From: an uncultured Trueperaceae bacterium
GTDB taxonomy: Bacteria; Deinococcota; Deinococci; Deinococcales; Trueperaceae
Length of the DNA: 64,000 nucleotides
Reading direction: 5' to 3'
NCBI GenBank assembly: GCA_963799485.1
Contig: CAWCXJ010000009.1
Coordinates: forward strand, 163,984 to 227,983
Below the pieces are notes generated by a model. The model did no database searches. It saw nothing but the letters and a program-made list of their open reading frames with translations, and was not told where the DNA came from. Shown in pieces: positions 40,398 to 43,465 of this stretch. The translations under genes and the position numbers were made by a program. Position 1 is the stretch's first letter. Every line of letters starts with the position of its first letter.

Positions 40398-40988
40398 CTA
40401 TAACCGGCGACGGTTACTGATGGCGCGTCCTAAGGTTACTTCGTCGGCGTACTCGAGGTCGCCCCCGACCGGTAGCCCGTAAGCTATACGTGAAGTCGGA
40501 ACTTTCATCTCGCCAAGCAGCCGTGCTAGATACATCGCCGTCGCTTCACCCTCGACGGTCGTCGCGGTCGCCAGAATCACCTCTTCGACGTCTTTCAGCC
40601 GTGTCAGCAGCGGCTGTATGGTGAGTTGATCCGGCCCTACCCCGTTCATCGGCGAGAGCGAGCCGTGCAGCACGTGATAGAGCCCGCCGTATTCACCGGA
40701 ACGCTCGATCGCCAACAGGTCGGCGGGTTCTTCGACCACGCAAATCAGGTTCTGTTCGCGCTGCACGTCGGTACAAACGGCGCAACGCTCACTGTCGGTG
40801 ATGTTAAAACAAACTTCGCATTGCCGCAAACTGCCTTTGGCGTTCAGCAGCGCTTCAGCGAGGCCGCGCACCTCGTCGTCGGGCCGGTTGAAGAGGTGAA
40901 ACGCAAGCCGCTGCGCGCTTTTCGGGCCGATACCGGGAAGTCGTCCTAGCTCACGGATGAGCTGGGTCAAAGCGGGAGGGTATTTCAA
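40398..40988 (-). CDS. recR: Recombination mediator RecR
   Basis: LPGIGPKSAQRLAF, C4 zinc finger, YHVLHG, VEGEATA, GGDLEYAD. Confidence 0.97.
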   Translation of the reverse strand: MKYPPALTQLIRELGRLPGIGPKSAQRLAFHLFNRPDDEVRGLAEALLNAKGSLRQCEVCFNITDSERCAVCTDVQREQNLICVVEEPADLLAIERSGEYGGLYHVLHGSLSPMNGVGPDQLTIQPLLTRLKDVEEVILATATTVEGEATAMYLARLLGEMKVPTSRIAYGLPVGGDLEYADEVTLGRAISNRRRL

Positions 40989-40991
40989 GTG

Positions 40992-41303
40992 CTAGAACAT
41001 CCCCCCTAAACCGCCCATGCCGCCCATCGCTGAACCCATCTCGGTCTCTTGCAGCTCTTTGGCCTTGCGCTGCGCGTCGTTCACAGCCGCCATTACGAGG
41101 TCTTCAAGGAGCTCGACGTCTTCGGGGTCAACGGTGCCGGGGTCGATCTTTACGGCGGTAATCGAACCGTCGCCGGAAGCGGTCGCCGTCACCAAACCGC
41201 CGCCTGCGCTGCCCGTGACCGACAAGTTCGCCAGTCGCTCCTGCGCTTCCTGCATCTTTTTTTGCGCCTTTTGCGCCTCTTTCATCAGCTTTTGCATGTT
41301 CAT
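40992..41303 (-). CDS. ybaB: YbaB/EbfC nucleoid-associated protein
   Basis: LMKEAQK, GSAGGGLV, DVELLEDLV.AAVNDA; dnaX-ybaB-recR synteny. Confidence 0.95.
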   Translation of the reverse strand: MNMQKLMKEAQKAQKKMQEAQERLANLSVTGSAGGGLVTATASGDGSITAVKIDPGTVDPEDVELLEDLVMAAVNDAQRKAKELQETEMGSAMGGMGGLGGMF

Positions 41304-41339: not shown

Positions 41340-43465
41340 CTAATCAGTGTCGGCGTCTAGTCCTACTTCCAAGTCTACCGTTTCAGGCGTGGCGTCGGCG
41401 TTGTCTGCTTCCGGGGCGGCGGGCGTTTCGGCGCTCTGCCAGCTAGTTACGTGGCCCGGAAACAGCTCGGTCAGGAGGATGAAGCGGGGGTCGGTCGCTA
41501 TGGGCCCGCTCAGCGGTTTTACGGTTTGTGCCGGCGCTCCCTGCGTCTGACGCGTCTCCGGCTGGTTGAAACCGGCTACGTTGTCGTCAGGGTAGCTCTC
41601 CCGCGAGTTTTGCGGCGCTCCGGGGAGGATAGGGTCGTCGCCCCAAAAGTCGGGTGGCAGTTCGTCGGCAAAAGGCTCGGGCGGCAGCGGCGCGGTTTCG
41701 GTGGGCGTCGGTGGAGATGCCGGAACTGTTCCGTCGGCCCGGATGCCGGGAGGAGGCTCGAGCGGTGGCTGAACCGGGCTGGGTTCTGTAACAACAGGTT
41801 CTGTAACAGCAGGTTCTGTGACAGCAGGTTTTACAACAACAGGTTTTACGGCGACAGGTTCTGCGTAGTCGGCTTTTACGGCGGGTTGGGCGCTTCTAGG
41901 TTGTTCGGTACGTCGCTCGGTGGGCGGCTCGGTTTGGCGTGCAGTCGGAGCGGCCCCTGGGCGCTCCGCTACGACTTTTTTGTGACACGTTCCCCCGGCC
42001 CCTCGAGGTGCAGCGTATACCCGTCGCCCAACACGTCTCTGACTAGCGTGACGAGTTCGTCCTGCCGGGTTTTAAGCTGGGTAAAGTGAAACTTGTGCGT
42101 GTCGGCAAACCGTAAAAAGATATCTGAACCCTCGATGTCGGCCTTGGCAGGCAACATAAACGCCTTGAGCTGCGTTCCGGCGCGGCTCTGCACGGTGTGC
42201 CACGAGGCTTTGGGGCGCTCAGGCTTGGCAGCTGGCGTAGATGGCGGCATGGGTTGCGCGGGTGTCGATGACGCCTCTAGGTGGGGCGGACGAACCGGCG
42301 CGGCGCGGCCCGTGGGGTTGAAGTCGGGCAGGTCGTTGGCTGTTGGGGCGGGGCGGGACGTAGGCTGCGCGGGTTGCGGTTGCACGCTCTGAGTCGTTTC
42401 GGAAGCTGATGAATCAGCAACCGGACGAGGGGCGTTTTGCGACAAGGCGTTGACGGCTTTGATGAGGGCGACCTCGAGCGAAAACAGGTCGTCGTAGCGG
42501 ACAAAGCGTTCCATCTCGTCGTCAAGCGCGTGGATCACCCGGAGCAGGTCGTCTTCGCCGAGCGTCAATGAAAACCCTTCGTCGAGCCCGACCTGGGTGT
42601 AGAGCGCGGCCCGCAGCTCCAAAGTCAGACGTTCAGCCAGACTGCGCGGCGCAAACCCGTCACGGTACAAGGCGCTCGCCTCACCGAACATGGCGCTTAG
42701 ATCGCGTTCGGCGAGCGACCGGGCGAGGGTTTGCATCCGGGTTTGTGGCGGCAGACCGAGGGCGCGTTCGGTGTCGTTTAAGGTGATGGTTGCGCCACTC
42801 GCCAGAAGGCGCTCCAGCAACGATTCTGCGTCCCGCATCGCACCGTCGGCGGCGCGGGCGACGAGGGTCAAAGCTCCCGGTTCGGCCTCGACTTTGGCTT
42901 CTTGCGTCAAATGCCCCAGCTTGCTCTCGATTTCAGCCTCAGAAAGCCGGCGAAAGCGGAAGTGCTGCGTCCGTGAAAGGATGGTCGGCGGCAACTTTTC
43001 CGGTTCGGTCGTGGCTAACACAAACACGAGACCTTCGGGGGGTTCCTCGAGCGTCTTTAGCAGCGCGTTCGACGCCGATTTGGATAACATATGCGCTTCG
43101 TCTAGCACCCACACCCGCCGCCCGCCGCGCACCGAAGACAGGTAGACCTTTTCGCGTAAATCGCGGATGTCTTCGACCGAGTTGTTGCTGGCAGCGTCGA
43201 GTTCAATGACGTCCGGGTGGCTTCCCTTTCGTACTAAAAGGCACGACTCGCATTCGCCGCACGGTTTCTCGCCTTGTTCGCAGTTGACCGCCATCGCCAA
43301 AAGCCGCGCCGTCGTGGTTTTCCCGACGCCGCGCGGCCCCGAAAACAGATACGCGTGACCGATGCGACCTTTGGAAAGCGCCGCTTGCAAGGGTGCTTTG
43401 ACGTGTTCCTGACCGATGACCTGGGCAAAAGTAATCGGCCTTGCACGCTGGTAAATCGCCGCCAT
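41340..43465 (-). CDS. dnaX: DNA polymerase III gamma/tau: 498-aa zero-frame product (stop 41969) and predicted ~708-aa -1 frameshift product (stop 41340)
   Basis: FSGPRGVGKTT, DAASN, DEAHML, LLKTLEEPP; A_AAA_AAG at 41975-41981 with the -1 frame open to 41340. Confidence 0.92.
41946..41996 (-). promoter_or_regulatory. Programmed -1 ribosomal frameshift signal in dnaX
   Basis: GGGGGA internal SD-like, 9 nt, A AAA AAG, 6 nt (TCGTAG), stem CGGAGCG/CGCTCCG. Confidence 0.85.

Follow-up and report, generated by a model that had tools for sequence, protein, structure and literature searches.

In Escherichia coli, dnaX carries a slippery A_AAA_AAG heptamer, a 3' stem-loop and an upstream Shine-Dalgarno (SD)-like element (PMC3711429); tau is the product of the zero frame, and a -1 shift ends translation one codon later and so gives the short gamma (PMC5009743). 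In Thermus thermophilus, tau is encoded by a single zero-frame open reading frame (ORF) and gamma is made by transcriptional slippage on a run of nine A's (A9) (PMC3711429, PMC5009743). Here we describe the 3' end of dnaX in an uncultured Trueperaceae bacterium, on a stretch of 64,000 nucleotides (nt) of contig CAWCXJ010000009.1 (assembly GCA_963799485.1, positions 163,984 to 227,983; hereafter the window), where elements of the E. coli type appear to be assembled with the outcome reversed: a short DnaX would be the default product and a tau-like form would need a programmed -1 ribosomal frameshift, a reading that we hold with good confidence.

Arrangements of this polarity have been reported before. 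Antonov et al. (2013, NAR 41:6514, PMC3711429) listed 17 reversed dnaX genes from 12 genera, with examples named from the Chlorobi, in which two ORFs are joined by a -1 transition at the DNA level, and assigned 12 of the 17, with poly-A runs of 7-10, to transcriptional realignment; their set held 5 Deinococcus-Thermus species in 6 genomes. The subject was taken up by Atkins et al. (2016, NAR 44:7007, PMC5009743), where Chlorobium phaeobacteroides figures as an unpublished candidate with E. coli-like stimulators and reversed dnaX is still described as predicted or unpublished. In the literature that we found there is no report of a reversed dnaX in Truepera or Trueperaceae, the species list of the 2013 cluster lying outside that coverage. 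The reversed logic is thus not new as a kind, and the Trueperaceae cassette is newly found within it, family-wide.

The locus shares with E. coli dnaX the heptamer, the 3' stem-loop, a single tRNA-Lys(UUU) and two products, here predicted, with a common N-terminus, and its GGGGGA is a possible counterpart of the SD-like element; unlike in E. coli, it is the zero frame that stops and the shift that would make the long form. It resembles the reversed genes of Antonov et al. in that a stop codon stands directly past the shift site, the long form lies in the -1 frame at the DNA level and the downstream ORF corresponds to the tau-specific C-terminal part. It departs from that set in having a classic A_AAA_AAG with a covarying hairpin, spread across one family of Deinococcota, and a tail that holds an alpha-binding-like motif. 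Caulobacter crescentus, too, has two DnaX forms of different length encoded by a single gene, but there gamma results from proteolysis of tau, a post-translational route without recoding (PMC5009743).

The proposed recoding cassette at the end of dnaX

The elements of the cassette and the frames that it would join are as follows.

41969..43465, minus strand: zero-frame coding sequence of dnaX, with a short, "gamma-like" product of 498 amino acids (aa) (ORF list, Pfam, NCBIfam)
41991..41996, minus strand: GGGGGA, an SD-like element and possible 5' stimulator that also encodes conserved Gly-Pro-Gly-Glu (sequence)
41975..41981, minus strand: slippery heptamer A_AAA_AAG, which stands in the X_XXY_YYZ register of the zero frame and is proposed as the site of the -1 shift (sequence)
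41969..41971, minus strand: zero-frame stop codon TAG, one codon past the heptamer, which ends the short product (sequence)
41946..41968, minus strand: 3' hairpin CGGAGCG / CGCTCCG with a 7-bp stem and a 9-nt loop, the proposed frameshift stimulator (fold, covariation)
41340..41975, minus strand: -1 frame ORF of 211 codons plus the stop TAG (41342-41340), the predicted tau-specific tail (translation)
41782..41862, minus strand: 15-nt tandem repeat, 4.3-5.4 copies with 83-85% matches, encoding (P-A/V-V-T/K-E/K) linker repeats (Tandem Repeats Finder)

The zero frame of dnaX ends in GTC ACA AAA AAG TCG TAG. GGGGGA lies 9 nt upstream of the heptamer, with the spacer ACGTGTCAC, and the hairpin begins directly past the stop, 6 nt past the heptamer, with its arms at 41968-41962 (CGGAGCG) and 41952-41946 (CGCTCCG). 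The -1 frame, taken from GTC at 41975, belongs to a frame that is open for 243 codons from stop to stop (42071..41340). Its translation is of low complexity and consists of a Pro-rich linker, two short conserved motifs, DELPPDFWGDD and DPRFILLTELFPGHV, and an acidic end. A ribosome shifting on the heptamer would make a product of 497+211 = 708 aa with the junction TKKVVAER. A preliminary description, made from the letters of the window, had placed the heptamer, the GGGGGA and the stem at these positions, had reported that the -1 frame stays open for 211 codons to the TAG at 41340, filling the gap before ybaB with a Pro-rich linker, DELPPDFWGDD and an acidic tail, and had given 498 aa and about 708 aa with this junction; the positions and the frame are as it gave them, and the sizes and the junction follow from the sequence.

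The 498-aa product contains the clamp-loader AAA+ domains (PF13177, PF22608) and, at residues 410-492, the globular DnaX_C domain (PF20964; 27.1 bits, cut-off 26.2). It matches the NCBIfam DnaX model NF011524, of 647 positions, with 716.7 bits (cut-off 601) and covers positions 1-500 of the profile, while a Deinococcus-like single-ORF DnaX covers positions 1-644. Judged by these profiles, the 498-aa protein is a DnaX without the last part of NF011524. Since it retains the globular DnaX_C, it is not a gamma of the E. coli type, which lacks domains IV and V entirely; here the tail alone is missing. The preliminary claim that gamma is the default and that tau arises by frameshifting is therefore supported by the comparison of relatives presented below as regards the direction of the shift, and has to be amended in two respects: the short form is not an E. 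coli-type gamma, and the reversed logic had already been reported.

The arrangement is widespread in the family. Among 41 related genomes searched, the tail was found in four of the five from the same genus, at 47-76% identity, and in two further genera of Trueperaceae, at 36-44%. By tblastn, dnaX and tail stand at the same -1 offset in six of six relatives, with the A run 10 nt before the stop in all six; a related-locus search with the single tail protein returned only two Truepera loci, both from metagenome-assembled genomes. Of 121 family genomes, 13 contain AAAAAAG-NNN-stop-CGGAGC exactly; one additional match, away from dnaX, was a chance occurrence. A further 28 family genomes with a dnaX match and without the exact pattern were followed up, and 27 of them were taken in, the contig of the other (G114) ending 350 nt past the match. 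The resulting classification at the level of the locus comprises 40 Trueperaceae genomes; G004, in which the contig ends, and about 80 further family genomes stand outside this count. The complete cassette is present in 34 of the 40 genomes, representing 16 genera: the run is A6G, A7 or A8, the zero-frame stop and a GC-rich hairpin come after it, and the tail lies in the -1 frame. Because the whole layout recurs in this way, chance and assembly error are excluded as its source. The preliminary description had proposed to compare dnaX loci for conservation of the heptamer, the stem and the -1 ORF, and this survey bears the proposal out.

Among the remaining genomes, five (genera g32, g9 and g6) have one long in-frame dnaX ORF that includes the tail and its motif, and in these the A run is wholly gone rather than one base longer. 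In the last, G047 of genus g34 (locus L050), dnaX ends in frame after about 548 aa (...GPGLFDDA), with no recognisable cassette or tail bearing the C-terminal LFPG motif described below; three other g34 genomes carry an A7/A8 cassette. The tail of G047 may be degenerate or shortened.

At the junctions of all 34 cassettes, the run reads A_AAA_AAG or A_AAA_AAA in register and is followed by a stop, which lies 3 nt past the A6G/A7 site in most of them and 6 nt past the run in four g34 genomes, where the run is A8, or A7 then TAG. In the junctions compared, the zero-frame stop of the relatives is TAG, TAA or TGA at the same place. The run consists of only six A's in the window and in 17 other cassettes (half of the 34). 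In the g34 variants, exemplified by L040, L054 and L056, two codons instead of one separate the A run from the stop (..AAAAAAAATAGCGTGA..), which alters the placement of the shift site with respect to the hairpin.

The hairpin was found in 29 of 29 cassettes folded, its first paired base lying 0-1 nt past the stop, and the sequence of its arms varies: besides CGGAGCG/CGCTCCG we observed CGGAGTG/CACTCCG, CGGGGCG/CGCCCCG, GGGACGC/GCGTCCC and GCCCGG/CCGGGC. In a MAFFT alignment of these 29 cassettes, 86.2% of the cells of the 7-bp stem are paired, compared with 39-44% after the 3' partners have been slid; among the cells that do not pair, several belong to misaligned rows whose hairpin has another length. 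Changes on both sides occur in five of the seven stem pairs, and the covariation score of 0.246 (shuffled mean 0.133) was reached by none of 500 shuffles. A 42-nt fold of the window has an energy of -21 kcal/mol (z -3.6). A cmscan of positions 41850-42100 against 4227 Rfam families gave no match at E <=10; from its layout, the cassette resembles the E. coli element in its working, yet it is no sequence member of any Rfam family.

Judged by raw duplex energies, the GGGGGA element may pair with the 3' end of the genome's own 16S rRNA, at -8.6 kcal/mol and the 9-nt spacing. On the same raw scale, a candidate SD-like site of <=-6 kcal/mol occurs within 22 nt in 31 of the 34 cassettes, where it overlaps conserved Gly-Pro-Gly-Glu/Asp codons. 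The only tRNA-Lys among the 43 tRNAs of the genome, a 15-contig draft of 99.99% completeness, has the UUU anticodon; in E. coli, a single tRNA-Lys(UUU) has been linked to the high shiftiness of A_AAA_AAG (PMC5009743).

The heptamer by itself is uninformative. AAAAAAG occurs 1196 times in the genome, so that the heptamer alone is compatible with chance, and 56 of these sites are in the A_AAA_AAG register inside ORFs of at least 200 codons. As a within-genome control, we compared five other in-register heptamers situated 2-12 codons before the stop of an ORF; their -1 frames extend for 5-33 codons, as against 211 at dnaX. Genome-wide, AAAAAAG is about seven times commoner than a mononucleotide model predicts (1196 observed, 160 expected), and A_AAA_AAG is the rarest of the three registers within long ORFs (56 sites, as against 227 and 74).

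Several observations indicate that the tail is translated as a continuation of dnaX. The first ATG, GTG or TTG in the tail frame of the window is at tail residue 203, behind both motifs, and it lies behind both in G005 as well; in relatives, the first canonical start is scattered between residues 2 and 203. No canonical start codon adjoins the stop in the junctions inspected, and in several relatives the -1 frame has stop codons 3-19 codons upstream of the heptamer. To judge from these frames, the tail is enterable only at the heptamer. In nine pairs, the tail has a ratio of nonsynonymous to synonymous substitution rates (dN/dS) of 0.20-0.44, values by which it is under purifying selection. 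Searched alone, the tail matched no Pfam or NCBIfam family.

Where the contig allows its end to be seen, the tail of the cassettes measures 91-333 codons, and the length of the linker is highly variable. At the short extreme, G049 of genus g36 (locus L042) has its A7, stop and hairpin after a long in-frame linker (locus positions 1263-1333), with a zero frame of about 585 aa and a -1 frame of only 91 codons; apparently, either the shift site has changed its place in the gene or the linker has grown on its upstream side. Searches of public protein sets matched the tail to 33 free-standing ORFs of 117-308 aa, of which one is called "hypothetical protein" and the others are nameless; they brought up no protein of 371-2000 aa containing the tail, which is weak evidence.

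Downstream of the tail the window continues with two further genes.

40992..41303, minus strand: ybaB, 103 aa, the next gene, which begins 36 nt after the tail stop (ORF list)
40398..40988, minus strand: recR, after ybaB (ORF list)

The gene ybaB also follows the tail in the loci of six relatives, although this adjacency is not universal among them.

The aligned site in other families of the order

In 18 of 18 genomes inspected from four other families of the order, the tail and its motif lie in frame within one long dnaX; these single ORFs, together with those of the in-frame Trueperaceae, measure 515-796 aa, and the open frames at dnaX matches in the four families are mostly of 600-860 aa. 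The single 786-aa ORF described for DnaX of Deinococcus radiodurans in a 2024 paper (PMC11219805) agrees with the Deinococcus-like genomes inspected here. An in-frame run of A8 or A9 occupies the aligned site in 14 of the 18. In a Thermus-like relative, whose best match in the PDB is the tau C-terminal construct (tau-c) of Thermus aquaticus (Taq), the two lysines of ..FSLEKKSPL.. are encoded by the in-frame A9. When the DnaX_C regions are aligned, the TKKS-stop of the window falls in the same columns as the Thermus-like EKKS and the GKKN/SKKN of two other families. Because the A8/A9 runs align with the TKKS-stop of the window, the recoding site is positionally homologous across the order. The same comparison makes the tail an orthologue of the C-terminal part encoded in frame in the relatives' single-ORF dnaX.

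The window thus shares with T. thermophilus, a member of the same order, a recoding site at the aligned Lys-Lys right past the last strand of DnaX_C. Judged by where this site lies, a Thermus-like short form would stop at the Lys-Lys, and its long counterpart would continue into a tail with a related motif (..LARRLGGRLLWV..); the A9 of the Thermus-like relative leads us to infer that Thermus gamma, too, keeps DnaX_C and lacks the tail. The window differs from Thermus in its run of A6, its offset frames, the hairpin downstream and a long form that would depend on the shift. Slippage of the Thermus type goes with a run of about 8-9 A's or more and with tau in the zero frame, whereas the window has six A's and its tau out of frame.

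A quick maximum-likelihood tree of the N-terminal part of DnaX (58 rows) recovers Trueperaceae as one group, with a Shimodaira-Hasegawa-like approximate likelihood ratio test (SH-aLRT) support of 98. The cassette is found on all deep Trueperaceae branches, and the three in-frame lineages are nested inside. This is the gene's own tree, obtained by a quick search and rooted at the midpoint for drawing only, and it tentatively suggests that the cassette is ancestral to Trueperaceae, with one origin and at least three reversions to a single ORF.

Proposed ribosomal frameshifting and its alternatives

In the mechanism that we favour, ribosomes that stay in frame would read AAG TCG TAG and release the 498-aa short DnaX, with its ATPase and DnaX_C. 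Ribosomes paused by the hairpin would slip back by one base on the two lysine codons of A_AAA_AAG, a step in which the single tRNA-Lys(UUU) would probably assist and the upstream GGGGGA might do so too. After slipping they would read 211 more codons and produce a tau-like DnaX of about 708 aa (...TKK-VVAER...). The added tail would be a disordered linker ending in the C-terminal motif DPRFxLLxELFPGxVxxW, and would most likely tether the polymerase subunit DnaE to the clamp loader; if so, the efficiency of frameshifting would set the ratio of tau to the gamma-like form.

The most serious competitor to this mechanism is transcriptional slippage, in which RNA polymerase would insert one A and normal translation of the lengthened messenger would yield the same long protein, as in Thermus with the roles reversed. 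The precedents are close at hand: Thermus dnaX slips on A9 (PMC3711429, PMC5009743), an A8 or A9 run stands in frame at the aligned site in most of the genomes inspected from other families, A7 or A8 is found in many Trueperaceae, and slippage was the explanation favoured by Antonov et al. for reversed dnaX genes with poly-A (PMC3711429). However, half of the cassettes, with the window among those concerned, have six A's only, while productive slippage is placed at runs of about 8-9 or more (PMC3711429, PMC5009743). The run moreover holds one register relative to the stop (3 nt mostly, 6 nt in four g34 genomes), of which slippage has no need, and the heptamer keeps the shift-prone register. 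The covarying hairpin lies at the classic downstream distance at which it acts on a ribosome, and it is still untranscribed while the polymerase is on the run. For these reasons, and because only tRNA-Lys(UUU) was found in the genome, we favour a shift by the ribosome and regard slippage as improbable, though less so for the members with A7 or A8.

An explanation without any recoding would make the tail a separate small gene, translated by internal initiation or reinitiation, or an untranslated remnant, so that the 498-aa DnaX alone would be made. The public gene calls agree with it on their face, since they consist of stand-alone tail ORFs with no fused protein among them. Against this stand the lack of a start codon before residue 203 in the window and the scatter of the first start in relatives, the lack of a canonical start beside the stop in the junctions inspected, and the place of the tail in relatives, where it forms the in-frame C-terminus of DnaX. 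Furthermore, the low dN/dS applies to the tail in its full length, also to the stretch that precedes any start, which argues for translation of the whole frame, and we consider this explanation very improbable. A sequencing or assembly error in the homopolymer, a mutation that has recently turned the gene into a pseudogene, or phase variation of the A run deserves mention in that homopolymers are error-prone and the genome is a draft in 15 contigs. Such an origin is scarcely credible given that the same out-of-frame layout is found in 34 independently assembled genomes, every one of them in the out-of-frame state, which speaks against phase variation as well; three metagenome contigs of relatives cross the heptamer without an insertion or deletion, the tail is under purifying selection, and the family members with an in-frame gene have lost the A run altogether instead of having gained a base in it. 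Among the sequencing runs searched, none from RNA was listed as containing the locus, and none contained more than 0.11 of the sampled words; the four runs with small shares yielded contigs of relatives only, among them the three that cross the heptamer.

Some observations weigh against a ribosomal shift with the polarity proposed here. In the many family members with A7 or A8 in place of A6G, one A inserted in transcription would give the same protein. The cassette is absent from five Trueperaceae and from all 18 genomes inspected of other families. The z-scores of the hairpin (48-nt stretches, mononucleotide shuffles) are mostly unremarkable, ranging from +1.2 to -4.5 with the window at -0.4, and the case for the hairpin is accordingly built on its position and covariation and not on its stability. 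The SD-like element overlaps the conserved Gly-Pro-Gly-Glu codons and is kept here as a possible stimulator. Finally, the tRNA census rests on a draft of 15 contigs.

Programmed -1 ribosomal frameshifting remains the reading that we prefer for Trueperaceae, and it suggests a broader scenario to which we would give an even chance. The Lys-Lys site past DnaX_C may be an ancient, order-wide recoding hotspot that switched both mechanism and polarity, from an in-frame A8/A9 (Thermus-like genomes and three other families), with the long form by default and the short form by slippage, to an out-of-frame A_AAA_AAG/A with a hairpin at the base of Trueperaceae, by which an essential subunit of the replisome would have come to depend on ribosomal frameshifting, and from there at least three times to a single ORF. 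One order displays, at one aligned site, the layout of Thermus-type slippage, a reversed frameshift layout and plain single-ORF genes. An interchange of recoding mechanisms has been argued in reviews (PMC5009743) and becomes directly testable in this order. If the hotspot scenario is true, the order would offer a natural series in which a change of about one base swaps the isoform that needs recoding, and the supply of tau could be tuned through translation. The evolutionary setting of the Trueperaceae case is unusually clear, and its frameshift-dependent tail has a plausible function.

The C-terminal motif and polymerase III alpha

Two conserved segments of the tail stand out in the comparison of relatives.

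41643..41663, minus strand: acidic-aromatic motif (D/E)(D/E)LPPDFW(D/E), kept in the tails of many relatives (alignment of 13 tails)
41430..41513, minus strand: C-terminal motif region (..DPRFILLTELFPGHVTSWQ..), the predicted polymerase (Pol) III alpha-binding peptide of tau (conservation, motif profile, complex prediction)

The C-terminal motif has the form DPRFxxLxxLFPG(R/K/H)VxxW, the F and G of LFPG being at least 90% conserved in 36 sequences, 8 of which come from in-frame relatives. Searched against the sequences of the PDB, a profile of the motif found as its best match residues 130-161 of the Taq tau-c construct 4iqj_M (E 0.037); E. coli tau was not matched at E <=10. The comparison with tau C-termini that the preliminary description had proposed thus points to Thermus tau, if weakly, and fails to reach that of E. 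coli; the likeness to the E. coli C-terminal peptide comes by analogy from the function reported in papers and not from a sequence match. An earlier guess, that the end of the Pfam DnaX_C profile is the LFPG motif, was ruled out, as DnaX_C ends near the Lys-Lys site in relatives.

DnaE of the window's genome, the Pol III alpha subunit, has 1277 aa. A complex of its residues 850-1277 with tail residues 98-212 was predicted with an alignment for each chain and with three controls. The pair scored 0.67 and the best control 0.00; the score mark applied is reached by 116 of 157 solved complexes and by 2 of 215 mismatched pairs. Three runs shared at least 41% of contacts, with a partner predicted local distance difference test (pLDDT) score of at least 44. 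The predicted interface joins tail residues 156-183, which are exactly the motif, to DnaE residues 1181-1223, 1249 and 1063-1075. On these predictions, the tail motif most likely tethers Pol III alpha to the clamp loader. Here too some points count on the other side. The match to 4IQJ is weak, and the motif profile included one Thermus-like row. The predictor may owe this score to prior knowledge of the Taq alpha-tau-c complex, which has been solved, and the fold of the partner itself is uncertain (pLDDT 44-47). Because a like complex has already been solved, the result is to be taken as a likeness to the tau-alpha interface and not as proof of binding.

The acidic-aromatic motif lies outside the predicted tail-DnaE interface. 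E-L-P-P-D-F-W was found by a regular expression in 17 of 29 tails, and a motif of this type is also present in the in-frame relatives of genus g32 (LPPDFW or LPPSFW). The helicase, SSB, the clamp or something else are possible partners for it.

As long as the tail is annotated only as nameless or "hypothetical" ORFs, the Trueperaceae genomes with a cassette are, on paper, without the subunit by which polymerase and clamp loader are coupled. Should no DnaX other than the long form bind alpha, replication in these bacteria would depend on a frequent translational "error", the ratio of the two forms being set by the hairpin and the slippery site.

Many DnaE homologues of Trueperaceae (P0006, P0013, P0015, P0017 and others) measure about 1650-1720 aa and contain intein/LAGLIDADG-type domains (PF14528, PF14890). 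The DnaE of the window's genome has no intein-type domain, and an intein in the replicative polymerase is a feature of some relatives only.

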